A stretch of 64,000 nucleotides of DNA, from NCBI GenBank assembly GCA_963713705.1, contig CAVQMY010000054.1, positions 52,314-116,313 on the forward strand. The letters run 5' to 3'. This document shows positions 3,128 to 20,749 of the stretch, one piece after another. Below the pieces are notes generated by a model, which did not search any database, was not told the DNA's origin, and saw nothing but the letters and a program-made list of their open reading frames with translations. Source of the DNA: an uncultured Verrucomicrobiae bacterium (GTDB taxonomy: Bacteria; Verrucomicrobiota; Verrucomicrobiia; Palsa-1439). A program made the translations under genes and the position numbers. How positions within the stretch are numbered: position 1 is the first letter of the stretch; every line of letters begins with the position of its first letter.

Positions 3128-3168
3128 TTCGTTGCGCGCTTCTTTCTCGCCATAGAGTTTCCACCAAC

Positions 3169-3928: not shown

Positions 3929-5440
3929 CTAGATCACGCAATTCTCCTCGATTACCTTCGCGTACCAATCGGCGCTGAGTTTCGGGATTCTCTGAAGCGT
4001 CTGGTAATCGACGTGGACCATGCCAAATCGTTTCGCGTAACCCTCCGCCCATTCGTAGTTGTCCAGCAACGACCAGAGGAAATACCCGCGAACATCAAAC
4101 CCCTCACGGATGGCGCGATGCAGCGAGATCAGGTGATTTCTCAGATACTCGCGCCGGCCCAGGTCGTGGACTTCGCCACTTGGCAATACCTGGTCGACGT
4201 ACGGCGCGCCATTCTCGGTGATGTAGACCGTCTCCACGCCGTATACTTCGCGGGCGTGACGAATCCCCCAATACATGGCCTGGGGCACGATGTTTAGCCA
4301 CGAAATGTCCGCTTTGGGATACTGCGAAGGCAGTGCGATCCGTTCCGCCTCGCCGTTGGATCCCCGTCGCACGAATTCACCGAAGTAGACGTTCAAACCA
4401 AGAAAGTCCGTCTTCTGTGAAATCAATTCGAGATCGCCCGGTTCGACCTTCGGCGCATCGGCGCCCGCACGTTTGAGGAATGCGGCTGTATAGGATCCTC
4501 CATACAGCGGCCCCATCAGTTGTTCGGTTTCCCTTAGATATTCCGCTCGCGCCGCAGTGATATCGGCTGCGGTTTCCGTCACCGGCACAGGCACCGGTGG
4601 ATTGTGAACGAGCCCAACGCGCGACCGTTTGCCGCCCAGTTCGCGAACCGCTTCCACGGCATAACCGTGAGCCAGCAACGCGTGATGATAAATTTGATTG
4701 ATCACCGCGGCGGATTCCTTTGCTCCGGGCGCATCGCAACCGTGCAGGTAGCCGCAGGGCACAAACCGCAGGATCTCGTTCATCGACATCCAGTTCTTGA
4801 CCCGATCGCCCAGCCGCTGCACAACCAGTTGCGCGTACCGCCCAAACGCCTGTGGCGTGGCGCGGACGCGCCACCCCCCACGGTCTTCGAGCGCCTGCGG
4901 CAGGTCCCAATGATACAAGGTTATCCAGGGCGTGACACCGTTTTCCAACAGCGCGTCGATCAGTCGGTCATAGAAGTCCAGACCCTTGGGGTTCGGTGCG
5001 CCATCCCCCTGGGGGAAGATTCGCGGCCACGCCACCGATAGCCGATAGTTCGGGATGCCCAGGCGCCCCAGCAATGCCACGTCTTCGCGATACCGATGAT
5101 AATGGTCGCAAGCCACGGTCGGCGTGTCGATCTTCCGCACCCTGGCAAAGCGATCCCAAATCGATTCGCCCTTGCCGTCCTCGAACGCGGCCCCTTCGAT
5201 TTGCGCCGCCGCCGTTGCCACGCCCCACGCAAACGCTCGCGGGAAACCGTAGCTCCGGCGACGAAGGGCGCGACCGAGTTTGGAGGCGCCGGGGGGCGCG
5301 TTGGATCGCCTGACGGGGGCAACGACCGGTGGCGTCGTCAACTCCGGTTGCCGCAGGGTCGTCGAGCCGGACTGCGACGAGACCACCGCGTCGGCTGGGC
5401 CGGATGCCTGGCTCATCACTTGGCCTCCAATCGCACCCAC
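3929..5440 (-). CDS. GH1 family beta-glucosidase
   Basis: [19 protein letters not shown] near the N-terminus, WMSMNEI (acid/base NE) and [10 protein letters not shown] (nucleophile ITENG). There is a ~65-aa N-terminal extension, so the true start may be internal. Confidence 0.9.
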
Positions 5441-5591
5441 GCCATCGATGCCAACCCGCAGGCCAATGGAGGCGCAGCCACGCTGCGGTTCGCCAAGTCA
5501 TGAACGAGGTTTGGTTGTTCTTTGCTTGTCTTCTCACCCATCGTGACTGCGCTCCATAATCCCTGGTGACATCGACCGGTTTCCGAACGTC

Positions 5592-5607
5592 TTGGTATCG
5601 ATATCAT
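5592..5607. promoter_or_regulatory. Candidate LacI-type operator, 14/16 match to palindrome TTGGTATCGATACCAA
   Basis: TTGGTATCGATATCAT lies ~150 nt upstream of the GH1 operon start. It is related to the sites at 6088, 16116 and 19088. Confidence 0.5.
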
Positions 5608-5622
5608 ACCCCGACCAATCTG

Positions 5623-5938
5623 TCAAGCGTAATTGGCGACCCCAGACTGGCTGTCGAAGAGGACCATGTGGTCGCCCGTCCCGGAGACGGCCTGCTGCAC
5701 GCCCTGCAACACCCGGCCAAAATAATAAGCACCCAACGACCTGCGAAATGGGGTAATCATGCCCAGCAAAGACGTGCGATTGCTCATGAACTGGCGCGCC
5801 ATCATATTGATGCGACAATCGAGCTTCTTGGGCCCCACCAAGATCACCTTGCGGCTGGGTGCCGACACAAATCCCCTGTCCGACTGCGCCCGCGAAACCG
5901 TCATTATCGACATCCCCGTCGCGCGCGATATCATCCAT
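5623..5938 (-). pseudogene. Truncated LacI-family regulator (HTH plus the first ~60 aa of the sugar-binding core only)
   Basis: ORF 5623..5934 reads MISRATGMSIMTVSRA...ARQFMSNRTSLLGMITPF...YYFGRVLQGVQQAVSGTGDHMVLFDS. This aligns with the intact LacI at 10457..11629 (MGDIARETGLSPMTVSRV...ARQLRAQHTFQLGVVAPF...LGHILQGIQQVLTGTDYHIALFDS). It stops after ~103 aa with no LacI-like continuation in any frame. An alternative MDDIAR start lies in a neighbouring frame across a GCGCGCG tract. Confidence 0.6.
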
Positions 5939-6087
5939 CGCGCCCACTGTTTTTGGGTCGCTGGCGCTCATGTGACGCTGTCGATAATACATCTTGTACC
6001 GTGTTGTCAACGACTTGCAGCATATCGTTACCCCCTCGGATGATCCGGAAAAACGCGCGGAATTCCTTTGACAAACCGGGTGATCTT

Positions 6088-6103
6088 ATGGTATCGATAA
6101 CAC
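6088..6103. promoter_or_regulatory. Candidate LacI-type operator (13/16 match) overlapping a possible sigma70 promoter
   Basis: ATGGTATCGATAACAC lies 59-74 nt upstream of ATG 6162. TTGACA at 6069-6074 is followed by TATCGA after an 18-nt spacer. Confidence 0.45.
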
Positions 6104-6161
6104 AACGACGGGGATTTATGCCGGTTGGTAACATACTTTTCAACCCACAGGAGAAGCGTAC

Positions 6162-7901
6162 ATGAAGAGAGCATGTTTAGTCATCACCGCCATCGTTATG
6201 CTAGCCACTGCGGCCAGCGCCGCCAATGTCGCCTTCGACAGCGCCGCGGATCCAGCCTACTCCGGCGGATGGTCGGGTACCAACGGTGGCTATGGGTTCA
6301 CCGCGTGGACACTCGTCCCGCTGCCCTGCGCCAGTAACGGGTATTTCTACGTCAACGATGCCGTCAATGGCTGCAACCATACCGCTCCCGGCATCGATAC
6401 CTCCGGCGTCGCGTGGGGTATGTCGTCCGACACCAACAGTCTGTTTTGCAGCACGAATGACGTGCCACAAGTTGGCGCGGTCGCTTATCGCGGCTTCACC
6501 GGCGGCCGATTGAGCGTCGGTCAGACTTTCGAAATTTATGTTCAACACGGCAGCGTCGATGGCGGGCTCGGCATCGAGTTTCGCACCAGCACCGATATGT
6601 CGTCTCATAGCGCTGGCGAACGCCTCAACCTGTACCGCAGCCCCAACACAGACTGGTTGATCTGGGACAAAGATGCGGCGGCGACCAATGGCGCCGTCGA
6701 CACCGGTATGCCGTGGGACACTGCCGGCTACAAAGTTGACTTTACCCTGACCGGTGTGGATAGCTACTCTCTCACGATTTCCAATCTGGATCCGTCGACC
6801 AGCGTGGCTTCCGTCACCACGACCGGCACGTTGAATGGCGCGTCCGGTGCGGGACTCGATAGCGTTGCGCTGTACACCGAGAGTCCTTTCAGCTACTGCT
6901 ACCAAAACGTGTACTGGAACAGCATGAGCGTGACCGGCCCCGCTCAACCGAACATCGCCAACGAAGCTTCTGATAGCGCCGCCGACGTCGCCTACACAAA
7001 CTCCTACCCCAACACCTGGGCCACTGGCCTCAACGGCGGCTATGGGTTCAGTCCGTGGACCATGTATGTGCTCGCGGGCGACGGGTACTTCTACGCGAAT
7101 GATTGCACCCAGGGCTGCTGTGGGGCCAGCAACCCCCGCACCTTGCCGGGGATCGACACCACGGGGCCAAATGGGCCCCAAGCCTGGGGAATCTCGGCGG
7201 ACACGAATACCGTCGCCGCACCTTCTCAAGCCCAAGTGTTCGCCACGCGCGGATTCAACGGCGGGTCATTGGCCGTGGGCCAACTCTTTGAGATGCGGGT
7301 CCAGAATTCATACGTCGATGGCGGCGCGGTCGGAATCGACTTCCGCACAGGCAACAGCCAGTCGGCCTACAACAGCGGGGAACGTCTGAGCCTGTACTTC
7401 AACGGCAGTCCGCACATTTACGATGGTCATGCGAACCCGTCGTTGTTGGGATACGACACCGGCGGCTTCCAGGTTGACTTCAATCTGACCGGCATCGATA
7501 CGTACTCGCTCACCTTGTCGAACCTGAGCAGCGGCGCCTCAACCAACGTCACGGGAACCCTCTCCGGCACGGCCGGCTCGGGAATCGACAGCATCGCGGT
7601 GTATAACCTTCAAAACCTGTCTGATGCATGGCACAACTTTTACGCCAACAGCCTGCGCGTGACGAGCACCGTCGCTCCCGTCATCAAGTCGGCCAGGTTG
7701 TTCCAGGGCACCAATGCGGTGATCTCCTTCCAGTCCATCTCCAATGCCGTGTATTACCTTCAGCGAGCCCCCGATATGTCCGGCACCAACTGGTCCACCG
7801 TGCTCACCAACGTGACCGGCAATGGGGGGATACTCGACCTCACTAATTCGCTGCCCGGGCCTGCCCAGAAACAGTTCTATCGCGTCGGCAAGCCCTATTG
7901 A
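6162..7901 (+). CDS. Secreted protein made of two tandem copies of the uncharacterised GGYGF module plus the same terminal ...QFYR domain as the GH5 enzyme
   Basis: Signal peptide MKRACLVITAIVMLATAASA. Repeat 1 spans aa 24-259 and repeat 2 aa 268-502 (shared anchors NGGYGF.(A/P)WT, PGIDT.G, GERL.LY, YSLT.SNL, TGTL.G..G.G.DS.A.Y). The C-terminus ...NWSTVLTNVTGNGGILDLTNSLPGPAQKQFYRVGKPY parallels the GH5 end. Confidence 0.75.
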   Translation: MKRACLVITAIVMLATAASAANVAFDSAADPAYSGGWSGTNGGYGFTAWTLVPLPCASNGYFYVNDAVNGCNHTAPGIDTSGVAWGMSSDTNSLFCSTNDVPQVGAVAYRGFTGGRLSVGQTFEIYVQHGSVDGGLGIEFRTSTDMSSHSAGERLNLYRSPNTDWLIWDKDAAATNGAVDTGMPWDTAGYKVDFTLTGVDSYSLTISNLDPSTSVASVTTTGTLNGASGAGLDSVALYTESPFSYCYQNVYWNSMSVTGPAQPNIANEASDSAADVAYTNSYPNTWATGLNGGYGFSPWTMYVLAGDGYFYANDCTQGCCGASNPRTLPGIDTTGPNGPQAWGISADTNTVAAPSQAQVFATRGFNGGSLAVGQLFEMRVQNSYVDGGAVGIDFRTGNSQSAYNSGERLSLYFNGSPHIYDGHANPSLLGYDTGGFQVDFNLTGIDTYSLTLSNLSSGASTNVTGTLSGTAGSGIDSIAVYNLQNLSDAWHNFYANSLRVTSTVAPVIKSARLFQGTNAVISFQSISNAVYYLQRAPDMSGTNWSTVLTNVTGNGGILDLTNSLPGPAQKQFYRVGKPY

Positions 7902-7949
7902 GAACTGGATAATACACTGGCATTTTCACCGCCGATAGCCGATTGGCTC

Positions 7950-9265
7950 CTAGCAGGCTACTAAAGAAGTCTGCATTACGGCAGTGGTTTGGGTGATGGC
8001 GGTTTGGGAGGGCTGTAACGATGCCCTGTCCTGAGTGTCGTGCGGGTTGAGCCAACAGTTCGACATAATCGGTCGGTTCATGAACTGGTCTCCAAACGAA
8101 CCAGTCGCACCAAGTTGTACGCGCTGACCGTCACCAGGACCTCTTGGGCAATCTTCCACCGACCTACGAAGCGGGTTCGGGCCAGCCGGCCCACCGTCTT
8201 GCACCAGCCGAAGATTTCTTCGACCCGTTTGCGGAGGCGTTGGCTGACCCGGTAGCGCGCCGTGCGCATCCGCTGCCGTGCTCGGTGGCGGGCCCGCCCG
8301 GCCGCATCCCGGGCCACGAGGCGCCCCGGCGAATCGGCACGTGCGGTTCGATCCCGGTGCGCTCCAACTGCGCCAGAAACTTGCCGTCCTGGTAACCGCC
8401 ATCCAGGCCCAGCGTTCGCGGATGCAGTCGCTGTCGACGTTTGGCGCGTCGCACCAACGCCCGCGCTTGCCGCCGCTCGGCGTGTCCGTCCGCGGCATCC
8501 ACGGCGACGCCGACGCACAGACCGTGACGGTTCTCCATTAACACGTGCGCGCTGTGGCACAACTGCGCCTCCTTGCCCAGGCCCTTGCGCGCCAAGCGGG
8601 CTTGGGGATCGGTGGCACTCTGGTGGGTGTCGTTGGTGCGACGCTGCCCATGAAAGTTCACCGTCGGATTGCCCGGATCGTCGGGCGGTTCGCTGGACGC
8701 GGCGCCGTCCTTGGGCTGCACGCTCTTCAGGCTGGCCCACGAGCGTAGCAACGTGCCGTCCACCGTAAAGTGTTCGTCACTGACGTAGCCTTCCAGCATC
8801 GCTTGGCGCACCAGCGCATCGAAGAACGCCTGCACCAATCCATGCTCGGCAAAACGCTCACGGTTGACGCTGAACACTTCCGGCGTCCACGCGCGTTGCT
8901 CCAACGGCAAGTCCACGAACCACCGATACAGTTGGTTGAACTCGATATGCTCCATCAGGGCGATCTCACTACGGATCGAGTACAGCGCTTGCAGCAGCAG
9001 GGCTTTGAGCAATTGCTCCGGCGGAATGGAGGGCCGCCCCAGCGAACTATAGGCGCGGGTAAACTGCCGATTCATCTGGGCCAACAGTTCGTCACAGCGG
9101 CGCTTGATGGGCCGCAATGGATGGTTCGGGGGCACCCGCTGCTCCAACGAAACGACCACAAACAACGACTCTTGCCGATCAATCTGTCCACGCATGCGAA
9201 ACCCTCCCTGTTCGCCACGTCAGTATAACCGGCCCGTCAACCCGACTTCTTTAGTGCCCTGCTAG
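7950..9265 (-). mobile_element. IS5-family insertion sequence, copy 1 (1316 bp)
   Basis: Terminal inverted repeats CTAGCAGGCTACTAAAGAAGT (7950-7970) and ACTTCTTTAGTGCCCTGCTAG (9245-9265). CTAG is present at both ends. It is nearly identical to the copy at 46927..48243. Confidence 0.85.
8078..9195 (-). pseudogene. IS5-family DDE transposase (DUF772 N-terminus) split across two frames
   Basis: ORF 8164..9195 carries MRGQIDRQESLFVV...HFTVDGTLLRSW...LGLDGGYQDGKF (the two D residues). ORF 8078..8740 carries the C-terminal ...YRVSQRLRKRVEEIFGWCKTVGRLARTRFVGRWKIAQEVLVTVSAYNLVRL (E motif) in the -1 frame. The junction is at GCCGGGGCGC (G4 here, G5 in copy 2). Confidence 0.8.
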
Positions 9266-10457
9266 TGCTCCGTCAAAGTTGATTTGCGGTACGGAGGAAG
9301 GCATTCTGGGGCACGTCAAGGAGGTCGTATGCCACAGAAGCCTGTTGTGCAGTTGGGCGATGGGGATCGCCGACAACTGCGTTCGTTGATTCAGGCGGGC
9401 CGCGCCCCGGCCCGCACACTCACTCACGCCCGCATTCTGCTGAAGGCCGATCAAGAACTGTCCGATGAGGAGATTGCCGACGGACTGGAGATCAGCACGG
9501 ACACCGTATCGCGCGTGCGCCAACGGTTCGTCCAGCAGGGACTGGCGGTGGCCCTGCATCGGCGGCCCCAGCCCCCGCGCCCTGACAAGCGCAAGCTCGA
9601 TGGTGATGGGCAAGCGCACTTGATCGCGCTGGCCTGTTCCGCTCCGCCAGCCGGGCACGCCCGCTGGACATTACGTCTGTTGGCGGAGCGGTTCGTGGAG
9701 TTGGAATACGCGGGGAGTCTCTCCCACGAGACGGTGCGCACGGCACTCAAAAAAACGACCTGAAGCCGTGGCGCCAACAGCGCTGGTGTATCCCGCCCGA
9801 GGCCAACGGGGAGTTTGTCTGGCGGATGGAGGATGTACTGGCTGTGTACAAACGGCCCTACGATCCACGGCGGCCCGTGGTCTGTCTGGATGAGAGCAGT
9901 CGGCAGTTGCTGGCGGACACCCGCGCGCCGCAGGCGGTCGCGCCCGGACGTGCGACGCGGCAGGATTATGAGTATGAGCGCTGCGGCACGCGCAACCTGT
10001 TTATGGTGTTTGAGCCGTTGGCCGGCTGGCGGACGGTGCCGGTCACCGAGCGGCGCACCAAGCAAGACTGGGCGCATTTGATCAAAGATCTGCTGGAGGG
10101 TCGCTACGCGCAGGTCGAGAAGGTCGTGCTGGTGCAGGACAACCTGAACACGCACACGCCCGCGTCCTTGTACGAGACGTTTGGCCCGGCCGAGGCGCGC
10201 CGGTTAACGGAGAAGTTAGAGTGGCATTATACGCCCAAGCACGGCTCGTGGCTGAATGTGGCGGAGTGCGAGTTCAGCGCCCTGACGCGGGCGTTGCCCG
10301 ATCGGTTGGCGGGCGAACAAGCCTTGAGACGCGCCGTGGGGGCGTGGGAGAACGAGCGTAACAACGCCACCGTGCGGGTCAATTGGCGGTTCAGCACTGT
10401 CGACGCACGCATTAAGCTCAAACACCTCTACCCAGCAATTGAACTTTGACGGAGCAC
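9265..10457 (+). mobile_element. IS630-family insertion sequence (1193 bp) flanked by a TA duplication
   Basis: IRs GTGCTCCGTCAAAGTT (9265-9280) and AACTTTGACGGAGCAC (10442-10457) are 16/16 identical and extend to 22/25. TA lies on both sides (9263-9264 and 10458-10459). Confidence 0.85.
9329..10449 (+). CDS. IS630-family transposase, apparently made by a -1 programmed frameshift (orfA 9329..9763, orfB frame to 10449)
   Basis: GGAGG precedes ATG 9329. The orfA HTH region ends ...TVRTALKKTT*. An A7 run at 9749-9755 lets a -1 slip read ...KKNDLKPWRQQRWCIPPEANGEFVWRMEDVLAVY... into the DDE part (VCLDESS...VLVQDNLNTH...WLNVAECEF). Confidence 0.75.
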
Positions 10458-11629
10458 TAGTTCAACCGCGAAGGCTTTGGCTGCTTGGACATGGCCGCGA
10501 TCGATGGGTGTTCCCGACCCGGCGGAGCCGTTGACGAACGCGTCACCAATCGGGCCGGCAACCGCTTGTGCAAAACTCCGGGAGGCTCGGCCGCGTTGAG
10601 AACCTCCAGCAGATAGCGGGCGGCGACCCGTCCGAGATCCATCATCGGTTGCGCGACGGTTGTCAGAGCCGGCACAAACTCCGCCGAGGCTTCGAGATCA
10701 TCGAAGCCCCCGACCGAAAGATCCTCAGGAACTTTGAGTCCCAGAACCCGAGCGGCGTCAATGACCCCGTAAGCCATTTGATCGTTCGCGGCGAAGATTG
10801 CCGTCGGACGTTGGCTCTTGGCCAGCAAACTCATGGACAGTTGGAAAGCCTTCCTGGTTTCGTATTCGCCCTGGACGATCCATTCATCCACGACCTTGAG
10901 ACGATGCTTGGCCAGGGTATTCCGGAAGCCCAATTCGCGTTGGGATGCGTCCCGCAGGTCATTCCGGCCCCCGATGAACCCAATTCTCGTGTGACCAAGC
11001 TGTATGATGTGTTGCGTCATCGCGCAAGCGCCGCCGTAGTTGTCAACATCGACATAACTAATACCATGTTGGCCGAGAGAACTGCCCACAACGATAATCG
11101 GCATCTGCAGATTGGCAAACGTCTCGGGAAATCGATCGCTCAACTCAGGGGCCACGACGATCAGCCCACCGACGCGTCGCTCATGGCAAAGGTTGACACA
11201 TTTTCTGACGTCGTTAAAGTCCTCCGAAAGGCTGTCAAACAGAGCAATATGGTAGTCCGTCCCCGTCAACACTTGCTGGATCCCCTGCAAAATGTGTCCG
11301 AGATAAACCGTGCCGATTAATCCTTGAAATGGGGCCACAACGCCCAACTGGAATGTGTGCTGGGCGCGGAGCTGGCGCGCAATGATGTCCACATGGTAAT
11401 TCAACCGCTTGGCCGTCGCCAGCACCCGCTTCCGCTTTGCCTCTGAGACGGCGCCGCGGTTGCTGAGCACCCGGGAAACAGTCATCGGCGAAAGACCGGT
11501 CTCGCGCGCAATGTCGCCCATTGTCACCTTGCCCGAGTCTCTCATCAGGGAGTCAGTAGCACTCGACCTATCCCATGTCAACGCTTCTTCAGCACCGGAG
11601 CGGTTTGTGGTCGTAAGGCTCATCATCAT
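10457..11629 (-). CDS. LacI-family transcriptional regulator
   Basis: MGDIARETGLSPMTVSRVLSN... HTH followed by a periplasmic-binding-protein-like core. The likely true start is the ATG at 11521. The stop TAG overlaps the CTAG insertion site of the IS elements. Confidence 0.85.
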   Translation of the reverse strand: MMMSLTTTNRSGAEEALTWDRSSATDSLMRDSGKVTMGDIARETGLSPMTVSRVLSNRGAVSEAKRKRVLATAKRLNYHVDIIARQLRAQHTFQLGVVAPFQGLIGTVYLGHILQGIQQVLTGTDYHIALFDSLSEDFNDVRKCVNLCHERRVGGLIVVAPELSDRFPETFANLQMPIIVVGSSLGQHGISYVDVDNYGGACAMTQHIIQLGHTRIGFIGGRNDLRDASQRELGFRNTLAKHRLKVVDEWIVQGEYETRKAFQLSMSLLAKSQRPTAIFAANDQMAYGVIDAARVLGLKVPEDLSVGGFDDLEASAEFVPALTTVAQPMMDLGRVAARYLLEVLNAAEPPGVLHKRLPARLVTRSSTAPPGREHPSIAAMSKQPKPSRLN

Positions 11630-11837
11630 TGCGATTGCCGCACCGCCCCACCCGTCGCCGGCCTGATAAGGTCCGTTGCTCGAATCGCCCGTTCAGATCG
11701 GTGGAACAACTCCAATTACATTGCCGGCGAGTAAAGCCGGAGAGGAGGCCGATGGCGGCAGCAAGGATGGCTTCACCCGCCGAGCCGGCGAGCTTGGCAG
11801 CAGAGGCCGGCAGCTTCAGACCGTCTTGAGTCCATCC

Positions 11838-12755
11838 TCACCCCTTAATGCCCGTCATCGATATGCCTTCAATGAAGGTCTTTTGGGTGAGGAAGAACAG
11901 GATGATGATGGGCAGGGCGACGAGGGTGCTGGCGGCCATCAGGTAGTGCCATTCGGTGCCGCCGTGTTGACTCTGGAACAGTTGCAGGCCGAGCGCGAGC
12001 GTGTAGTCGTCCTGTTTGGTCAGGTAGATCAACGGGCCGAGGAAATCGTTCCACGTGTACATGAACTGAAATAGCGCGACCACCATCAGCGCGGGCCGGC
12101 ACAGCGGCAGGATGATTTGCCAGAAAATGCGGAATTCGCTGCAGCCGTCGATGCGGGCGGCCTCGGAGAGGTCTTTCGGGATCGTCATGAAGAACTGCCG
12201 CAACAGGAACACATTGAACGCGCCGGCAAAGAACGAGCCGACCCAGAGCGGCTTGAGCGTGCCGATCCAGCCCAGCCAGCGGAACAGGCAATAGATGGGC
12301 ACCATCACCACCGGGAACGGGACCATCATCGTCGCCAGGCACAGCAGGAACAATTTGTCGCGTCCGCGCCAATCGATTCGTGAGAAGCCGTACGCCGCGA
12401 GGGAACTCGATGCCACGGTGCCGATGACCGTGAGCACGCACAAGATCAATGTGTTCTTGAGATACGTCCAAAATATCTTCATCGCGTGGATGGCGTTTGC
12501 GAAATTCTCCCAGCGTGGCGCGAACTTCCTCACAATCTTGTCGGCCGGGTACTTGTCCATATCCGCCTGCTGGATTTCCGTGAGCGCGCCGTCCTTCTCT
12601 ACGTATAACCGGTACGGAAGCCACGTCGGCGGCGAGGACATGGTTTGTTCGATTGGCTTCAGGCCCGTGGAGATCATCCATGCCAGAGGAATCAGGCAGG
12701 TGACGGCCCCGAGCGCGAGCAGGATATAGAGGAGCAGGCGGTGCAGGAGCCGCAT
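11838..12755 (-). CDS. Carbohydrate ABC transporter permease (MalG/UgpE-like)
   Basis: EAA loop LSEAARIDGCSEFRIFWQIILPLCRPAL with six predicted TM stretches. Confidence 0.85.
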   Translation of the reverse strand: MRLLHRLLLYILLALGAVTCLIPLAWMISTGLKPIEQTMSSPPTWLPYRLYVEKDGALTEIQQADMDKYPADKIVRKFAPRWENFANAIHAMKIFWTYLKNTLILCVLTVIGTVASSSLAAYGFSRIDWRGRDKLFLLCLATMMVPFPVVMVPIYCLFRWLGWIGTLKPLWVGSFFAGAFNVFLLRQFFMTIPKDLSEAARIDGCSEFRIFWQIILPLCRPALMVVALFQFMYTWNDFLGPLIYLTKQDDYTLALGLQLFQSQHGGTEWHYLMAASTLVALPIIILFFLTQKTFIEGISMTGIKG

Positions 12756-12758
12756 GAG

Positions 12759-13643
12759 TTACTCTCCCCCGTAATAGATGAGCCGGCGCGTCGAGCGCGT
12801 GGCCAGCCATGTCAGCGCCAGAATAATCAGAAACAGGATCCAGGCCATCGCGCACGCGTAGCCCATCTGCTGGTAGTCGAAAGCGTTCTGGTAGAGATAC
12901 ACCGTGTAGAACAGCGCCGACCGGTTCGGCCCGCCACCGCCGAGCATGATGTACGCCTGCGCAAACACCTGCAGCGAACCGATGATGCCCATGATGAGGT
13001 TGAAATAGATGACCGGCGAGATCATCGGCACCGTGATATGGCGGAATTTCACCCACGGATTCGCCCCGTCGATTTCGGCGGACTCGTACAACGAGCGGGG
13101 CACGTCCTGTAGCGCGGCGAGGTAGATGACCATCGTGTTCCCGCAACCCCAGATCGCCATGAGGATCAACGATGGCTTGGTCCACTTTTCATCGGCCAAC
13201 CATTGCGGGCCTTTGAGGCCCAGCACGTGCAACCCGTGATTGAGCAGACCGAAGTTGCCATTGAGGATCCAGAGCCAGACCATCGAACTGGCGACGACCG
13301 GAACGAGCGACGGCAGGAAATAGATCGTGCGGAAAACGGAACGCCCTTTCACGTCCTGATTGAGCATCACGGCGATCAATAGCGCGATCACCAGGCAGAA
13401 CGGCAGCGACAGGAATGCGTAGTACAACGTGTTGTACAGTGATTTCCAGAACACGGTGTCGGTGACCATGTCCCGGTAGTTCAGCGAGCCGACCCAGACC
13501 GGTTTCGTCAGCACGTCGTAATCGCAGAAGGAGTAATAAATGGACGCGCACACGGGAAACACGGTGAACACCAGAAAGCCGATGATCCACGGGCTGATAA
13601 ACGCCAGCCCAATCCGCAAATTGCGTTTCTCACCGCGCGTCAT
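12759..13643 (-). CDS. Carbohydrate ABC transporter permease (MalF/UgpA-like)
   Basis: LYESAEIDGANPWVKFRHITVPMISPVIYFNL. The gene lies 4 nt from the downstream permease. Confidence 0.85.
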   Translation of the reverse strand: MTRGEKRNLRIGLAFISPWIIGFLVFTVFPVCASIYYSFCDYDVLTKPVWVGSLNYRDMVTDTVFWKSLYNTLYYAFLSLPFCLVIALLIAVMLNQDVKGRSVFRTIYFLPSLVPVVASSMVWLWILNGNFGLLNHGLHVLGLKGPQWLADEKWTKPSLILMAIWGCGNTMVIYLAALQDVPRSLYESAEIDGANPWVKFRHITVPMISPVIYFNLIMGIIGSLQVFAQAYIMLGGGGPNRSALFYTVYLYQNAFDYQQMGYACAMAWILFLIILALTWLATRSTRRLIYYGGE

Positions 13644-14907
13644 AGTTGCTCCACTCTTTGAGACGCCCGTCCTTGACCATGTCCCAGCGGGTCAGCATCC
13701 GATCCAGTTTCCACTGCACCCGCGACTGCACCGTATCGAGCGCTTGTTCCGGAGTAGCCTCCAGCGCCATGATGCGGTCGATCGCCACGTTCATCTCGTC
13801 GTTGTACGCGCCCCAGACCGACAACCGCGGCGCATACTGCGCATCCGGGCTCTTCGCCAGTTCCATAAACGTCCTGATGTACGGGTTCGGATGTTGCTTG
13901 TAAAACTCATCACTCACTTTGATCAGCGGACTGAACTTGCGCTGGCCGAGGCACAGCTTTTCCATCGGGCCCTGCTGGTTGACGTAGCGGATGAACTCGA
14001 ACGCCTCCCGCGGATGGCGCGCGCCTTTCGGGATCGCCAGCACGTCGGCATCCACCAGCGTGACCAGCGGGCAGTTCGCGGGATCCTTCGCGGGAAACGG
14101 CGCCGCGCCCCACTCCATCTGCGGCGCGTACTTGTTGATGAAGTTGTACATCCACACGCCCTGCAACGTCATGGCAATCTGGTCGGAGAAGAACGGGTTC
14201 TGCGGTGATTGGAAATTCCCAAACGACGCGCCGAAACTGCGCCGGTTGTCGACACCGTACTTCTCCGACTGCGATTGGAGCCAGTGGAAGGCCTGGATCA
14301 TCTCGGGGCTGTTGGCGGTGATATGCCGCTGGCCGTCCCACAGTTTCCCGCCGAACCAAAACACCCACATCGGCATCCACCACCCCGGCTGTTGCGGGTC
14401 ATGACCGACCTGCACCAGCTTGAAGTCCTTGGCCTTCTTCTCCGTGTCCGTCAGGTCCGGGTAGCGCACCCGCACCACCTTGCCATCCCGCTTGATTTCG
14501 ACAATGGTCAGCCGCTCAGACATGCTTTCGAGTTCGTCCAAGCTGCGCGGCGGCCGGTCGGGATCGAGTCCCGCCTCGCGAAACAGTTTCTTGTTCCAGT
14601 GCAATGCCAGCGAGGTCGGCGTGCTCGGCAACGCCCAGATGAACCCGTGATGGCGGCACAAATCCCAGTACACGGGAATGTAATCCTCGCGCTTGATGCC
14701 CGCTTCCTGGATCATCCTGTCGAGCGGCGTCAGCGCTCCCTTCTCGGAAAAGCCAGTAACGGTGGCCGGCCAGATCCCGGCAACATCGGGTGGGTCCCCG
14801 CCGGCCGTGGCCAGCATCAGCTTGCGCTCGATTTCCCCAATCCCCGTGAGTTTCCGGACGAAAATACGGTTCTGGGAATTGTTGAAGTCATCGACGACGG
14901 CCTGCAT
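13630..14907 (-). CDS. ABC transporter extracellular solute-binding protein (family 1). The lipoprotein signal appears displaced into another frame upstream (to ATG 15061).
   Basis: SBP-like sequence runs throughout. The frame is open upstream (..CGTPTPTNGRVEISYWEKWTGFEDDAMQ) but has no start. The adjacent frame encodes MGFWNRSGATSAGMAIVCTVLAFTGL. Deleting one nt near 14985 would give ...VLAFTGCGTPTP, a good lipobox. Confidence 0.75.
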   Translation of the reverse strand: MQAVVDDFNNSQNRIFVRKLTGIGEIERKLMLATAGGDPPDVAGIWPATVTGFSEKGALTPLDRMIQEAGIKREDYIPVYWDLCRHHGFIWALPSTPTSLALHWNKKLFREAGLDPDRPPRSLDELESMSERLTIVEIKRDGKVVRVRYPDLTDTEKKAKDFKLVQVGHDPQQPGWWMPMWVFWFGGKLWDGQRHITANSPEMIQAFHWLQSQSEKYGVDNRRSFGASFGNFQSPQNPFFSDQIAMTLQGVWMYNFINKYAPQMEWGAAPFPAKDPANCPLVTLVDADVLAIPKGARHPREAFEFIRYVNQQGPMEKLCLGQRKFSPLIKVSDEFYKQHPNPYIRTFMELAKSPDAQYAPRLSVWGAYNDEMNVAIDRIMALEATPEQALDTVQSRVQWKLDRMLTRWDMVKDGRLKEWSNYDAR

Positions 14908-15127
14908 CGCGTCGTCTTCAAATCCGGTCCACTTCTCCCAGTAGGAGATTTCGACGCGACCATTCGTGGGAGTGGGTGTCCCACAGACCGGTGAAAGCCA
15001 GCACCGTGCAAACGATTGCCATCCCGGCGCTGGTGGCGCCTGATCGGTTCCAGAATCCCATGAGGTCTCGGTCTGTGCGCAGGTAAGTGCCCCCGGTAAG
15101 GTTCAAAGAATTGGCCGCCAAAGTCAA

Positions 15128-15144
15128 CCGGTTATTGTTACCGG
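15128..15144. promoter_or_regulatory. Weaker operator-like inverted repeat CCGGT-N7-ACCGG upstream of the ABC operon
   Basis: CCGGTTATTGTTACCGG lies 67-83 nt upstream of ATG 15061. Its arms resemble the GGT...ACC arms of the 16-bp palindrome. Confidence 0.25.
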
Positions 15145-15410
15145 ACATTTCCCCCGTGCCCCGCGCCTCGCAAACTGGGAATCGGGATGCTGGCAGAAGA
15201 AACCGTCTTCAAATGCCAGCGCATACGGACATCCCTGCGGCGAACCCACCAAACACTCCACCAAGCCAACGGGTACCAGAAAGCCGAGCAACACAAGCGT
15301 TCGGGGCAGGTAGCAACTCCGACTGCACCTTTCGGGCGTCAGCCATCGTTCTGGCCCCTATCTACAATTCATGTTGCCGCCAATCAACGTCCCCGCCAAT
15401 GGCCGCCGCA

Positions 15411-16052
15411 TTATTTGCCGCGTCGAAACCGATAACCCAACAAAGTCATCAAGCTGCCGGCGACAAGGGCCAGCGTGCTGGGCTCTGGAACCACCTCCAA
15501 GTTGGCGTTGTCAAACCACACGGTTCCGGTTCCGTTTGGTTCAGCCAATTCAACCTTTACCAGGGCTGTATCGATGGGAGCAACCGCGGTCACTGTAAAA
15601 TTAGACCACGGATGCGGTATGTCATAATTCTGCCCATACACCGCTGGGTCAACGGTCGCCAGAAAGCTCTCCGACAATTGATTGCTGCTGGCATCGAGGA
15701 AGAACAGCCTCATTTCACCATAGGGCAAGTACCAGGCCTGGGCGCCGCTGTCGACGGTAAGCGTGTACGTGTCTCCCGCTATCCCGGGAACTATCTGATA
15801 CTCTCCAGCACCAGCGCTGGAACCGCCACCGTCGGCCATGTAGTACGAGCCGTCCACCCCATCGAGAGGTCCGCTGGTGTTGTTTTGGTGGTTGGCCCAG
15901 CCGCCACCATACGTCCACAACGTCCAAGCGGTCGGCGGCGCCACAGAGCTGGGATCGTTAAAGTCTCCGTTGATTAGAAGGTTGGATTGGCCATGGGCGA
16001 GGCTGGCCGTCAGGCCGATCGTCGCCAAAAACACCGCAAATGCTTTTTTCAC
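15411..16052 (-). CDS. PEP-CTERM-anchored secreted protein with a CBM-like jelly-roll domain
   Basis: GTG 16052 is preceded by AGGAGA. Signal peptide VKKAFAVFLATIGLTASLAHG. The mature part starts NLLINGDFNDPSS...W. The C-terminus VVPEPSTLALVAGSLMTLLGYRFRRGK is a PEP-CTERM sorting signal. Confidence 0.8.
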   Translation of the reverse strand: MKKAFAVFLATIGLTASLAHGQSNLLINGDFNDPSSVAPPTAWTLWTYGGGWANHQNNTSGPLDGVDGSYYMADGGGSSAGAGEYQIVPGIAGDTYTLTVDSGAQAWYLPYGEMRLFFLDASSNQLSESFLATVDPAVYGQNYDIPHPWSNFTVTAVAPIDTALVKVELAEPNGTGTVWFDNANLEVVPEPSTLALVAGSLMTLLGYRFRRGK

Positions 16053-16115
16053 GTGCGCTTCTCCTGTTAAGACCGGTTTCGTTACCCGTGCGTGCTGCAT
16101 TGCTACCATTCGCAA

Positions 16116-16131
16116 TTGGTATCGATACCAA
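16116..16131. promoter_or_regulatory. Perfect 16-bp palindrome TTGGTATCGATACCAA, candidate LacI-type operator
   Basis: Perfectly self-complementary with a central CG. It lies 64-79 nt upstream of the PEP-CTERM gene start at 16052. Confidence 0.55.
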
Positions 16132-16402
16132 AACGCCCCATTCCTGTCAACCACAATCTTCGCCGGTTGTCACAATTGTGTCGCGCGTCTCGGTCGCGCC
16201 ACATCTTCAGGGCACAAGCTGAATCCGGCAATAGCGGGGCCGGCCCGTTGGTGGCGCCGCCGACGTCCGTGTAGTTGGTCGTGTACCCACCGCTGGAGTC
16301 ACCCGAGGTGGCCTGCATCGGGTTGGGATTGCCGGCCGGAAGCGCGTTGGAAACCGCTGATGAAGTAACGCTGGCCCGGGTACTTGAGGGTCGGCGGAAA
16401 GT

Positions 16403-19007
16403 TTAGCCGCGATTCTTCACATTCTTCGCGCGGCGGCTGGCGCCATAGGCCGTGCCAAGACCGCACAGCCACAGGAGCACGACGCTGGGTTCAGGCACCG
16501 AGGAGACTTGCTGCAATTCCAATTGATGGATCTGGCCGTTGCCCAGCAGGGTGATGTCCGCTGATGAGAAATCGTTCGAATTGACGAAATACAGCACCGT
16601 GTTGTTGCTGATGATCAGGTCCGAGGAACCGAACAACGAAAGATCGTTCACGAACAGTGCGTTCGTGTCGCCGCTGGCGCCACCGATATCGGCGGACGCG
16701 CTGAGTTCGAGAATACTGTTGGTGCCCGCATTGCCGATTTCCAGGTTGTCCAGGGCGAAGTTGTTATCGAACCCGGTGACGGCGGCGAAGCTGGAAACGA
16801 GCTGCACGCCGGTGGCCGTCGGGCTTGGGGTGCCGACGAAGCCGCCGGTGAGTTTGAGTCCCGCGGTGAAGAATTGTTGCGTGAGCGTGGTGCCGACGGC
16901 CGAGGCGTTGTCAAAGATGAACTTGGTGCCGCTGGCGCCGCTGCCGCCGGGGGTGGTGTTCAGTGTGTTGTAGGATGTGTTCTGGGTGCTTTGGTTGACG
17001 AAATTGCTCTTGAAGAGGTACACGTCGCCAGCCGAAGCGCTGATGTAGCCGCTGGAGGTGACGGTGTAGGTGTTGTTGAACACGTTGGTTGTCGGGTCGG
17101 TAATCCACGCGCCGGAGTTGACCACCGTGCCGTTGAACGTGCCGACGCTGCCCACGGAAGCGAACGTGCCGCCGTTGGCGACGTTGAAGGCGCCGTTAAT
17201 GATGATGGTCGCGGTGTTGGCGGTGACGACGCCGCCCGAGTTGTTGTTGAGCGTGGTGGCGCCGAGCACCAGCGGCGTCCGGCTGTTGGCGAAAATCGTG
17301 CCGTCGTTGTTGAGCTGCGACCAACTACCGTCAATCGTGCCGCTGCCCTGAATGAGGCCGCCGCTGGCATTGGCCAATTTCGTCGACGGAGTCCCGCCAT
17401 CGACAGAAACGGAGCTGACAACGCCGCCGCTCATTTGCACGCTGCCAAAGTTCGTCACGGCGCCGCTATTGTTCCAAGCGTTTTGGGTGCGGGCAACCGC
17501 CAGGGTGCCGTTGTTGGCCAGCATAATCGTGCCGTCCACGGCGTTCTGCACGCCGCCCAGATTGGCCGCATCGTAGGAATTCAGCACGAGCGTGCCGTTG
17601 GTGGCGGTTATGACGCCGTGATTGATGATGGCATGGTTGACATTCCCGAAGCCAAAGCCGGTCTGCAGAGTGCCGTTGCCAGTGATGGCGCCGGCCGCGC
17701 TGTTGGTGAATTCACCGCTCGGGTCATTGCCGGTATTGTTGGCCATGAGAACCGTGCCGCCCAACAGGAGGAACGTGCCTTGATTGTCCTGATAGGCTCC
17801 GCCACCGACAACCGTTGAGGAAAGCGTCATGTTGGCGCCGGAATCAATCTTCACCGTCCCTTGAATTGCACTGCCGGGCACGTACGCAAGACCGAGGTCA
17901 ACGTCGTTGCCCGAGGAGATTTCCAACGTGCCACCGGAGTTGACGATCCACGCTCCGCCAAAGCCGACGCCGGGGGCGACGTTGCCGTTGATGCGCATCG
18001 TGCCGCCGCTAACGGTCTTAAACGTGCCAAACGATAACGTGCTGCCGCTGGACGTGAACGTTTGCTGATTGCCGGCGATGGTCTGAAAAAGGTTCAGAAC
18101 TCCGTTGCTGGCGATCACGCTGCCGGGCATCGCCCTGTCGGACGCGCATGGCGATCGTGCCGTCACCCTGAATGACGCCATAGTTGTCCATGCCGCGGTC
18201 GGTCGCCTGATTGCCGTTGAAATATACTGTGATGCCGCCGCCATTGAGCATCACCGTACCGTTGATTTGGGGATTGTTGCTATCCAAGGCGCCCCACGCT
18301 GCGTCGTTTCGGTCCAGCGCGAACGCGGCGCCGGAGTTGATCGTCAACGTGGCACCGCTGTTAAGCTGAAAGCCATTCGCGGAGGTGTTGCCACCGGTTT
18401 CCACCCATAGCAATCCTGACTGGACCTGGATTTGGCCGCCGTTGGTCATCACGAGGCCGTTGGCCTGGTTGAATATGTTCATATTCAGTGTGCCGCCATT
18501 CCTGGAGATTACCGTGCCGCCGAACAACGCGTTGCCGATGTCGGTATTCTGAATATTGATGCTGCCGTTATCCAGAACCAGTTGGCCGCCAGCATCCAGG
18601 TGGAATTGTTGGTAGGCGGTCAACGAGCCGCCTCCCGTGATGTCCAGCTTTCCGTGGTTCTGGACCCACATGTAGTCGCCATCCACGAAATAGGCATTCC
18701 CGTCCGAGCCGATGATCATCGTGTTCGTGCCCGTGTTGCTCGGATCGCTATTGTTGATGGTGAATCCGGAGCCGCTGTAGAAGGTCCACCGGCTGTTGAG
18801 ATAGTAAATGTTCTCCGTGCCGGTCGCGACCGAGATTGTACCCTGGCCGTAATTACCGTCGCCGGCCGGATTGTTGTTCCAATTGGCACTGCTGGTCCAG
18901 TCATTGGAGCCGGAACTCATGATCCACGAGGTATCGCCGAATGCTGACGTTGTGGATGCGGCACTAGCCAGCGTGACAATTATGGAAGCAAAAAAACTCG
19001 CCTTCAT
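16403..19007 (-). pseudogene. ~870-aa beta-helix surface protein (autotransporter-associated beta-strand-repeat type) with a PEP-CTERM anchor, interrupted by one frame change near 18130 (or an assembly indel)
   Basis: ORF 18018..19070 has signal peptide MKASFFASIIVTLASAASTTSAFG and G/N/T-rich repeats. It ends ...YGVIQGDGTIAM and continues in another frame (ORF 16403..18244) as ...DRAMPGSVIASNGVLNLFQ... through to ...SSVPEPSVVLLWLCGLGTAYGASRRAK. Confidence 0.7.
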
Positions 19008-19068
19008 GAAAATAGTGTTCTCCCCGCCCAATACGAAAACCAACCTTTTCATGCCATGTTCTCCCTTC

Positions 19069-19091
19069 AAAAACCCCAGCCGTTTGGCTGG
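19069..19091 (-). terminator. Rho-independent-terminator-like hairpin on the minus strand
   Basis: The minus strand reads CCAGCC-AAAC-GGCTGG-GG-TTTTT. It lies just upstream of the beta-helix gene and overlaps the operator-like site. Confidence 0.3.
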
Positions 19092-19103
19092 TATCGTTAC
19101 CAG
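19088..19103. promoter_or_regulatory. Candidate LacI-type operator (13/16 match)
   Basis: CTGGTATCGTTACCAG lies 36-96 nt upstream of the possible starts of the beta-helix PEP-CTERM gene. Confidence 0.45.
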
Positions 19104-19242
19104 AACCGGCCGTGATTGTCAATCGCAAACTTCGCAAGCTTTGGGAAGTTACGGGTACATCGTGCCCCCCCCCGTGGCGAAGCTGACTGTGATAAGCACG
19201 CAGAGGCTGCAGGAACTGCGGGGACAACGCTGGGCCCATGCA

Positions 19243-20749
19243 CCACCACTGTAAACATCTTGTTCGTTGATAACTCTCTGGCCCCTTGGGGCATCGGTCG
19301 CTAGACTGAAGCTCCAACAAGGAGGTGGCAGTCATGCAGCAGATGGATCTGCTGGCCAGACTGCCGCTGGCGGAGGGAGTGTTCGAGCTGTGGCAGGCGA
19401 GCCTGCCCGATGAACGGCTGGGCGCCATCTACGAACAGCACCGGGGACGCTGTTACGAGAAGAAGATATGTTTTCCGCTGGTGGTGCAGTTGTTGGCCGA
19501 CGCGTTGTGTCAGTATGGAGGCAGTGGCCGTGCCAGCTTCGAGCATTCGGTCGCGTCCAGGGAGTCGGCGGCCAGCATCCAAGCGTTCTACGGAAAGCTG
19601 CGCCGCCTGCCGATTGAAGTGAGTGAAGCGTTTCTGGCGGAGGGCAGCGCGTCGTTGCGGGAGTTGTATCCGGCGGCGGCGGCGCGCGAATTGCCGAGCT
19701 GCCTGCGAGAATTCGAAGTCCTGATCGTGGATGGCAAGGCCATTAAGCGGGTCGCCAAACGGCTGAAGGTGACGCGCGGGCGAGCGGGAGGAGTGTTGGG
19801 GGGTCGGGCGTTGGTATGTTTGTCGATGCGCAGTGGCTTGGTGGTGGCGATGGCCGGGCATCCCGACGGGGAGATCAATGATGTGCGCCTGGTACCGCAG
19901 TTGTTGCCGCAGGTGCGCTCGCGCCTCCGTGGACCGCGGTTGTGGGTCGAGGATCGCGCGTTTTGCGATCTGCAGCAGCCGGCGTTGTTCTGTGAAGAGG
20001 GCGATCAGTTCTTGGTGCGCCACCATCAGCGGCTGCACTTTCGAGTGGATCCAAAGCGCCCCTCAGGCTGCGGCCACGACGCGGAAGCTCGCCAATGGGT
20101 GGAGGATTGGGGCTGGGTGGGCGCTGCCAACGATCAACGCCGGCGGCGCGTGCGGCGGATTCGGCTGAAGTTATCGCCGCAAGAGTCACTGGTGCTGTTA
20201 ACGAGTTTGCTGGATGCGGAGCGCTACCCTGCGGTGGCCTTGCTGGAGGTCTACCGTCAACGCTGGGGTATCGAACGAGTGTTTCAGCAGGTCACCGAGG
20301 TCTTTGGGCTGGAGGGCTTGATCGGTAGTAGTGCGCAGGCGAGCGTTTTTCAATTGGCGTTTTGTTTGGCGCTGTACAACTCCGTGCAAGTACTGCGGGG
20401 CTATGTGGCGGCGGGAAACCGCTGCCAGACCGAGCAACTCAGCATGGAGAAACTGTTTGTGGACGTGGAACGGGAATTGATTGCGTGGAGCGTGTTGGGC
20501 CGGGCGCGGGAGACGGTCGAATGGTTGGCACCGCCGCGCCGCCTGAAGGAATGCCGACAGCGATTGCGGGAGCGGGTGGGGGTTTTGTGGGAGGATCGTT
20601 GGAAGAAATCGCCGCCGCAGAAACAACGTCGCCATCCGTCACGAGGTCACGCGCCGGGCAAGCACACCTCGGTCTATCGAATAGTCGAGGAGTATCGTCG
20701 GCAAAGTAAACTCAACCCTCGCCATGATGAATGATGTTTACAGTGGTGG
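19243..20749 (+). mobile_element. IS4-family insertion sequence (1507 bp), apparently intact
   Basis: Perfect 17-bp TIRs CCACCACTGTAAACATC (19243-19259) and GATGTTTACAGTGGTGG (20733-20749). An 8-bp direct repeat CCCATGCA flanks them at 19235-19242 and 20750-20757. Confidence 0.9.
19334..20734 (+). CDS. IS4-family DDE transposase
   Basis: AAGGAGG lies 8 nt before ATG 19334. Motifs ...LIVDGKAIK..., ...LWVEDRAFCD..., ...LEVYRQRWGIERVFQQVTEVFGL... (Y-2-R-3-E). The frame is uninterrupted. Confidence 0.85.
   Translation: MQQMDLLARLPLAEGVFELWQASLPDERLGAIYEQHRGRCYEKKICFPLVVQLLADALCQYGGSGRASFEHSVASRESAASIQAFYGKLRRLPIEVSEAFLAEGSASLRELYPAAAARELPSCLREFEVLIVDGKAIKRVAKRLKVTRGRAGGVLGGRALVCLSMRSGLVVAMAGHPDGEINDVRLVPQLLPQVRSRLRGPRLWVEDRAFCDLQQPALFCEEGDQFLVRHHQRLHFRVDPKRPSGCGHDAEARQWVEDWGWVGAANDQRRRRVRRIRLKLSPQESLVLLTSLLDAERYPAVALLEVYRQRWGIERVFQQVTEVFGLEGLIGSSAQASVFQLAFCLALYNSVQVLRGYVAAGNRCQTEQLSMEKLFVDVERELIAWSVLGRARETVEWLAPPRRLKECRQRLRERVGVLWEDRWKKSPPQKQRRHPSRGHAPGKHTSVYRIVEEYRRQSKLNPRHDE

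Follow-up and report, generated by a model that had tools for sequence, protein, structure and literature searches.

This study concerns a stretch of 64,000 nucleotides (hereafter the window) from an uncultured Verrucomicrobiae bacterium (contig CAVQMY010000054.1), in which the palindrome TGGTATCGATACCA and three near-copies of it precede genes of glycan utilisation and of surface proteins. This palindrome is probably the operator of a dimeric LacI-family repressor that controls a local cellulose/beta-glucan regulon, and the repressor is most likely LacI1, encoded by the intact LacI-family gene of the window. A first-pass annotation, made from the sequence alone, had already pointed out a recurrent 16-bp palindrome upstream of four transcription units and had proposed it as the mark of a LacI regulon. 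In the mechanism that we propose, each operator would be embedded in a sigma-70-type promoter (TTGACA, 14-15 nucleotides (nt), TGnTAtCGA), its left half-site would coincide with the extended -10 and the -10, and the bound repressor would block RNA polymerase at the four promoters. A breakdown product of beta-glucan, imported by an ATP-binding cassette (ABC) transporter of the regulon, would then release the repressor.

The search of the window for the 16-mer TTGGTATCGATACCAA with at most three mismatches returned exactly four matches, at the positions previously annotated, compared to 0.06 expected from dinucleotide shuffles (n = 100), among which four matches were reached in 0/100. The scores given below come from a weight matrix trained on the sites of relatives that had been retrieved by the LacI protein, without use of the motif.

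5592..5607, minus strand: operator site 1, two mismatches, 22.6 bits, reading ATGATATCGATACCAA toward GH1
6088..6103, plus strand: operator site 2, three mismatches, 25.5 bits, ATGGTATCGATAACAC
16116..16131, minus strand: operator site 3, no mismatch, 28.8 bits, the perfect palindrome TTGGTATCGATACCAA
19088..19103, minus strand: operator site 4, three mismatches, 20.0 bits, reading CTGGTAACGATACCAG toward its gene

A weight-matrix scan, of the kind that had been suggested as a check, was run on the 64-kb window with a matrix from relatives; it placed the four sites at 20-29 bits and the next-best position at 7.3 bits. One of 50 shuffles attained 20.7 bits, above site 4, and this site is therefore convincing only with its promoter context, which it has. 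All four sites are intergenic, as had been stated, and the announced distances to the start codons (about 40-95 nt for three sites and about 150 nt for the fourth) were measured as 58 nt for site 2 (to ATG 6162), 60 nt for site 3 (to GTG 16055), 80 nt for site 4 (to ATG 19007) and 151 nt for site 1 (to GTG 5440, the earliest possible start of GH1). The repeat itself is real but the 16-bp length did not hold: the conserved core is the 14-bp palindrome, with halves TGGTAT and ATACCA around a central CG; the T/A pair that flanks it in the 16-mer is a preference only. LacI-family operators are as a rule even inverted repeats of 14-22 bp with a central CG, located in the promoter region, typically 30-140 nt before the start codon (PMC4052901); the palindrome has this structure, sites 2-4 lie inside this interval and site 1 lies at least 151 nt away. 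The best possible stem has only 5 bp, and an RNA hairpin is therefore less plausible than an element at the DNA level; a scan of the window against Rfam found no known RNA family.

A perfect TTGACA, aimed at the downstream gene, lies 13-14 nt before the 16-mer (14-15 nt before the 14-bp core) at four of the four sites. The first hexamer listed here was read directly from the sequence.

5621..5626, minus strand: -35 hexamer TTGACA of the GH1 promoter, 13 nt from the 16-mer, holding the stop codon of the LacI2 remnant described below
6068..6073, plus strand: -35 hexamer TTGACA of the promoter of the gene for a 579-residue (579-aa) protein
16145..16150, minus strand: -35 hexamer TTGACA of the PEP-CTERM/ABC/LacI1 promoter
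19117..19122, minus strand: -35 hexamer TTGACA of the promoter of the beta-helix gene

At a 17-nt spacer, the left half of the palindrome occupies the -10 position as TG-n-TATCGA, or as TAACGA at site 4, and its TGnTAT corresponds to the TG of an extended -10 followed by the TAT start of the hexamer. This composite has the appearance of a layout in which the repressor occludes the promoter, the -10 being assigned by its position. We assign the promoters from the perfect -35, the TG motif and transcript boundaries. These boundaries were seen in a peat metatranscriptome, in assembled contigs of a population that is 95-99% identical: on GH1 the transcript contigs end at 5564, on the 579-aa gene they begin at 6111, the interval between 5588 and 6072 is without coverage, and on the PEP-CTERM gene they extend to 16075. 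At the level of contigs, this fits transcription starting just downstream of the operators; the predicted starts are at about 5588-5592 (-), 6103-6107 (+), 16100-16104 (-) and 19072-19076 (-) for sites 1 to 4.

The genes behind the four sites include a beta-glucosidase of glycoside hydrolase (GH) family 1, surface proteins, among them one resembling a carbohydrate-binding module (CBM), and the ABC sugar transporter.

3929..5440, minus strand: GH1 beta-glucosidase, maximal open reading frame (ORF); PF00232 8.7e-139; TIGR03356 BGL 527 bits, above cutoff
6162..7901, plus strand: secreted 579-aa protein with two tandem all-beta modules of about 230 aa and a C-terminal domain
15411..16055, minus strand: small PEP-CTERM CBM-like surface protein; PF07589; 75% identical to its orthologue in the related locus L081
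11838..15022, minus strand: ABC sugar transporter, with permeases at 11838-12755 and 12759-13643 (both BPD_transp_1) and a solute-binding protein at 13630-15022 (SBP_bac_1)
16403..19007, minus strand: beta-helix PEP-CTERM gene, in two frames, with 62% identity to an 870-aa protein of locus L086

The GH1 operon contains, in this order, GH1, a DUF1559 pseudopilin-like gene (3169-3891), a CBM-like gene (2504-3250) and a GH5 cellulase gene (1-2499, partial) that runs off the window edge; it is syntenic with locus L087. These genes would form the first repressed unit, and the 579-aa tandem lectin-like protein would form the second. The third would consist of the PEP-CTERM CBM-like gene, which is the first gene after site 3, together with the ABC genes and LacI1 behind it on the same strand, and LacI1 would therefore be autoregulated. 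The beta-helix PEP-CTERM protein would be the fourth unit; its L086 homologue has two operator copies upstream. Since the regulon comprises a GH1 protein of the BGL equivalog, GH5 cellulases, a sugar ABC transporter and CBM/lectin-like surface proteins, the inducer is likely cellobiose or a cellodextrin.

Two LacI-type sequences were recognised in the window, in agreement with the earlier description of an intact LacI gene beside the ABC transporter and of a decayed paralogue beside GH1.

10457..11629, minus strand: intact LacI-family regulator LacI1; PF00356 helix-turn-helix (HTH) and Peripla_BP_1/3 core
5623..5934, minus strand: remnant of a LacI2-type paralogue (tblastn: residues 40-135 at 46% identity)

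LacI1, which probably starts at M29 or M37 of the ORF, displays the features of the LacI/GalR family, namely an HTH (PF00356, 8.8e-15, residues 36-79), an effector domain of the periplasmic-binding-protein type (Peripla_BP_3, 4.7e-38; Peripla_BP_1, 9.4e-20) and a leucine hinge. It aligns over its full length with the CcpA, PurR and LacI structures of the PDB (E values of 1e-44 to 1e-48 for CcpA/PurR). The recognition helix MTVSR is invariant in 19 LacI orthologues and paralogues, and the hinge motif IARQL is kept in the LacI1 clade, the LacI2 remnant having ARQF at this place. In the PurR and LacI structures, the leucine lever of the hinge inserts at the central CpG of the operator. Of LacI2, the remnant keeps the HTH, the hinge and ~50 residues at the start of the core, and nothing more. 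The same truncation was found in L087, L109 and L133, and full-length LacI2 proteins are encoded in L082, L139 and L142. The remnant stops where the GH1 promoter begins (5621-5644), with its stop codon TGA within the -35 TTGACA. As this junction is also present in L087, L109 and L133, the truncation or rearrangement is older than these lineages.

Orthologues of LacI1 with 56-98% identity were found in peat, bog and soil metagenomes, one of them labelled Verrucomicrobiae; below this series, the identity falls to 41% for other LacI proteins. A scan of genome contigs with a LacI alignment, which used back-translated patterns that were too general, yielded among the matches listed only generic LacI genes of other phyla, with 31-41% identity. 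Eleven related loci (221 kb) were retrieved via the LacI1 protein alone and not via the motif. They share an architecture made of PEP-CTERM or GH5 genes, LacI1, an optional LacI2, a gene encoding a 600-630-aa protein (hereafter the 600-aa gene), GH1, a DUF1559 gene and an esterase and/or a GH5 gene. The pattern TG[GT]TAnCGnTA[AC]C occurs 25 times in these 221 kb; all 25 occurrences follow TTGAC(A) at 13-15 nt and face the downstream gene, which among the locus genes encodes a PEP-CTERM lectin-like protein, a GH5 cellulase or the 600-aa protein preceding GH1. The alignment of eight regions upstream of the 600-aa gene delimits two conserved islands, TTGAC and TG(G/T)TATCGATA(C/A)C, separated by an unconstrained spacer of 14 nt and followed by a conserved ribosome-binding site. 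Regarding the sites of the window themselves, the variant seen at site 1 recurs at the equivalent place in L087, L109 and L133, and an orthologue of site 3 in L081, L083, L084, L085 and L087.

Where the LacI1 orthologue is at most 67% identical (L086, L139, L140 and L141), the operator is TGTTATCGATAACA, TGTTAACGGTAACA or TGTTACCGATAACC, L140 having three perfect copies of TGTTATCGATAACA. Position 3 (G to T) thereby switches jointly with its dyad partner, position 12 (C to A), TGGTA...TACCA becoming TGTTA...TAACA. Such a symmetric double change, which includes the half without any promoter role, argues strongly for the site of a dimeric protein and against a mere promoter element. The LacI/GalR operator architecture, previously recognised from the palindrome and its central CG, is thus borne out by conservation and by a symmetric covariation that accompanies the divergence of LacI. 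Furthermore, one operator copy of L141 lies immediately upstream of the LacI gene itself.

The reciprocal search, in which metagenome contigs were scanned for TTGACA-N13-15-TGGTATCGATACCA, returned 50 stretches, including 34 high-GC Verrucomicrobial contigs. An orthologue of LacI1 (68-92% identity) is encoded by 17 of these 34 contigs, most of which are only 1-7 kb long. The genes downstream of the motif in the 34 contigs encode PEP-CTERM proteins, 600-aa proteins, GH5 cellulases, a ConA-like/SASA esterase protein, a PATR beta-helix protein, GH1 and LacI2. On two long contigs (847,601 bp and 450,319 bp), exact composite sites are present solely in the LacI locus, indicating that the regulon is local. 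Taken together with the sites kept in the loci retrieved by the protein, these results uphold the proposal of a LacI regulon.

Two other occurrences of the motif were observed. A low-GC (0.42-0.49) lineage carries an identical composite, TTGACA-GATnCGATnnGATn-TGGTATCGATACCA, with a conserved spacer (e.g., L131:4883-4916), directly upstream of an AMIN + Amidase_3 (AmiC-like) gene; it was found in L090, L094-L097, L105, L106, L111, L112, L114, L115, L118, L124-L126 and L131. In a metagenome-assembled genome of Massilia sp. (L050), a locus that the scan with the LacI alignment had brought up by chance, the near-identical palindromes TGGTATCGATAACA and CGGTATCGATACCA are located at 4258-4271 and 4806-4819, between a gene encoding a TonB-dependent receptor and three LacI genes accompanied by a gene for a LacY-type symporter. 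Two of these LacI proteins have the recognition helix SPMTVSRV, which is also that of LacI1, and the Massilia palindromes therefore provide an independent tie of this helix to this half-site.

The palindrome could be a LacI-family operator whose cognate regulator is not LacI1 but a LacI2-type paralogue, or another LacI encoded elsewhere. As LacI2 is truncated in the window, the regulon would then be constitutively derepressed or cross-regulated. LacI2 has the same MTVSR recognition helix; in relatives it immediately precedes the operator that serves the 600-aa/GH1 operon, sites 1 and 2 of the window flank its remnant, and operator-like sites are found upstream of LacI2 in L084 and L082. We nevertheless regard this explanation as unlikely. 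Perfect operators are present in L081, L083 and L085, where LacI1 is the sole LacI and LacI2 is absent within 10 kb on either side; LacI2 is truncated N-terminally (no HTH) in L084 and L130 and C-terminally in the window and in the L087 lineage. Despite this truncation, the operators remain intact across about 8% nucleotide divergence, and in several lineages where LacI2 is absent or truncated, the window included, the operators show no decay. Operators that are intact where only LacI1 is present, or where LacI2 was lost, favour LacI1 as the regulator, as does the fact that the operator variants follow the divergence of LacI1. One could also dispense with any repressor and consider the conserved block as a promoter only, with an unusual extended -10 or an alternative sigma target, the dyad symmetry being incidental. 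The fixed spacing to TTGACA, the TGnTAT of the left half and the occurrence of the composite in the unrelated low-GC lineage without a nearby LacI are compatible with this idea, which is improbable given that the distal half (ATACCA) is as conserved as the proximal one and changes symmetrically with it in diverged relatives, that the Massilia palindrome lies downstream of a TATAAT, not over a -10, and adjoins LacI genes, and that the motif is limited to the LacI locus on Mb-scale contigs. That the four copies are mere remnants of a duplicated or mobile promoter cassette, devoid of shared regulation, might be suspected since the window is rearranged and rich in insertion sequences (IS) and since site 1 abuts the LacI2 deletion junction. 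However, only the -35 and the palindrome are common to the four copies, whose spacers and flanks are unrelated, and hence the sites are not copies of one cassette; moreover, orthologous sites are kept across genomes whose LacI proteins are 60-96% identical. This last explanation appears very improbable.

Several observations weigh against an operator read by LacI1. The loci fetched through LacI hold a LacI gene by construction, and the reciprocal test extends to no more than half of the short contigs. In the low-GC loci, no LacI gene was found in up to 7.7 kb around the identical 34-bp composite, and the presence of this composite in an unrelated lineage implies that the sequence is not exclusive to this regulator. 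The two operator variants, GG/CC and GT/AC, are not matched by any single residue of the recognition helix: just before MTVSR, the proteins have P, T or A where the operator is TGGTA, and K, T or A where it is TGTTA. An intact LacI2, having the same helix, could bind these sites as well. At the level of the promoters, the putative -10 sequences (TATCGA/TAACGA) are devoid of the usual final T, and a consensus promoter scan of the window calls none of the four promoters, which it misses because of this terminal base. Finally, the RNA boundaries are those of contigs from a related population and not mapped 5' ends.

The first-pass annotation also mentioned a looser inverted repeat preceding the ABC operon.

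15128..15144, minus strand: CCGGT-N7-ACCGG inverted repeat, a terminator-like match in the promoter/terminator scan

This repeat is indeed present, but a role as operator of the ABC genes was not supported and was rejected: its arms are broken (CCAGGT...ACCGAG) in the ~91%-identical contigs L087 and L088, and it has neither a central CG nor a -35 at the right distance. Its inner GGTAACAATAACC resembles a degenerate operator; its conservation, seen only between near-identical sequences, is uninformative either way. The repeat is possibly a weak hairpin.

Regarding the proteins encoded behind the sites, the homologue search with the 579-aa protein gave three matches, and the Pfam and NCBIfam searches of this protein gave none. 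It matches the N-terminal module of a 1148-aa GH5 protein and a 338-aa protein of L086, and relatives encode GH5 cellulases of ~1150 aa that carry this module at their N-terminus. An AlphaFold model of low confidence (pLDDT 58) is suggestive of galectin- or concanavalin A (ConA)-like modules. Orthology between the 579-aa protein and the 600-630-aa protein encoded ahead of GH1 in relatives was rejected, since no significant similarity to the 629-aa and 625-aa proteins of relatives was found. A C-terminal domain of ~80 aa ending in ...(Y/F)YR(I/V/L)... is present in the 579-aa protein (7650-7901) as well as in 600-aa proteins (such as the 629-aa protein of L081), in the 1148-aa GH5 cellulase of L081 and in the L086 protein of 338 aa. 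This domain may serve in sorting or anchoring and be different from PEP-CTERM. A prepilin-type N_methyl/DUF1559 (SBP_bac_10) pseudopilin-like gene directly follows GH1 in 9 of the 11 related loci (L081-L085, L087, L139, L141 and L142, but not L086 and L140), a position which hints at a role of this expanded family of the Planctomycetes-Verrucomicrobia group in glycan utilisation. In the 5' leader of the PEP-CTERM gene (16056-16115, minus strand), the stretch from the operator to the ribosome-binding site includes a conserved block, (G)TGGTAG...TGCAGCACGCACGGG(T)AA, with counterparts at L081:9020-9060 and L083:9168-9210.

Compared to the other relatives, the locus of the window lacks the 600-aa gene and carries between LacI1 and the truncated LacI2 an inverted 579-aa gene with its own operator. 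The comparison with the 92%-identical L087, whose synteny with the window stops at 16296, revealed an insertion.

7951..10457, no strand assigned: IS insertion of ~2.5 kb relative to L087, between the 579-aa gene and LacI1, with a transposase at 8164-9195

In all, three DDE transposase/IS elements were found in 17 kb (7951-10457, 19325-20734 and 23790-25031), and flagellar genes (FlgK-like, 22616-23530; flagellin-like, 21177-22118) lie between IS copies. Two genes of the regulon are frameshifted. In the solute-binding protein gene, a frameshift at ~14986 cuts the signal peptide and lipobox (12 codons) from the mature part, whereas the 463-aa orthologue of L087 is intact; in the beta-helix gene, a frameshift at 18181-18237 generates two overlapping ORFs, compared to the single 870-aa homologue of L086. 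These frameshifts may correspond to real decay or to assembly errors.

To our knowledge, almost nothing is known of transcriptional control in this Verrucomicrobial group. For an uncultured lineage of peat and bog, this work proposes a code for the regulation of polysaccharide use that can be tested and that consists of an operator, a promoter geometry and a candidate repressor. The novelty lies in the operator sequence, in the lineage and in the uncharacterised surface proteins tied to beta-glucan use; the mechanism itself is conventional. Co-regulated genes can be recognised in genomes by this operator, which connects the 600-aa proteins, the tandem lectin-like modules, the PEP-CTERM proteins and the DUF1559 protein to the degradation of cellulose or beta-glucan. 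In addition, the GG/CC to GT/AC switch among orthologues constitutes a small natural experiment in the evolution of LacI-family specificity. More tentatively, and as a possibility that we consider rather less than probable, the LacI switch would mark a hitherto unrecognised verrucomicrobial cell-surface apparatus for cellulose capture, induced by sugar as one unit and distinct from both Sus-type polysaccharide utilisation loci and cellulosomes. Its parts may be exosortase-sorted PEP-CTERM lectin/CBM-like proteins, tandem galectin-like proteins, PATR/beta-helix proteins and DUF1559 pseudopilin-like proteins, and may also include the GH5 cellulases, with a common C-terminal domain shared among parts. 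PEP-CTERM and DUF1559 families are hugely expanded in the Planctomycetes-Verrucomicrobia group, and such an apparatus, if true, would give a first functional handle on them.

Among known systems, the cre box of CcpA (TGWAANCGNTNWCA) and the PurR boxes are built on the skeleton TG-N4-CG-N4-CA. CcpA and PurR are global regulators, with HPr-Ser-P and hypoxanthine or guanine as respective cofactors. The palindrome described here has the same skeleton but differs from these boxes by its inner bases, and the scores of LacI1 fall well short of the cutoffs of the NCBIfam equivalogs CcpA, PurR, RbsR and GalR. A study of the LacI family found a central CG for 1173 of 1303 transcription factors, more than 75% of sites at 30-140 nt upstream and autoregulation of 72% of the factors; the word Verrucomicrobia is not present in its main text (PMC4052901). 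With its even palindrome, its central CG, its location in the range of 30-140 nt, its local extent and its probable autoregulation, the present regulon resembles the LacI/GalR regulons of RegPrecise (Ravcheev et al. 2014, PMC4052901). A full-text literature search for TGGTATCGATACCA found no paper.

The comparison with actinobacterial regulators of cellulose utilisation is closer. CebR of Streptomyces and CelR of Thermobifida fusca are LacI-family repressors that respond to cellobiose. In the actinobacterial ceb/bglC regulon, operators precede cellulases, a cellobiose/cellodextrin ABC transporter and GH1, and the regulator gene adjoins that of the transporter. The regulon of the window likewise includes cellulases (GH5), an ABC transporter and GH1, with a regulator gene near the transporter. 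The CebR box is the 14-bp TGGGAGCGCTCCCA, from which CebR is released by cellobiose and cellotriose (PMC4358012). As for CebR, the operator proposed here belongs to a LacI-family repressor and is a perfect 14-bp palindrome with a central CG and TG...CA ends. By contrast, TGGTATCGATACCA, the box used in the window and its relatives, differs from TGGGAGCGCTCCCA at 6 of 14 positions, the inner half-site being GGTAT here and GGGAG in CebR. The phylum also differs (Verrucomicrobiota compared to Actinomycetota for CebR), and the best non-verrucomicrobial homologues of LacI1, several of them actinobacterial, are only 32-41% identical among the matches listed. Unlike in the regulon of CebR, PEP-CTERM/lectin-like surface proteins predominate in the one described here, a DUF1559 pseudopilin-like gene belongs to it, and every operator is fused to a -35/-10 at fixed spacing. 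The closest analogue in function is CebR/CelR: the system would work as CebR does, a likeness that does not by itself imply membership of that family.

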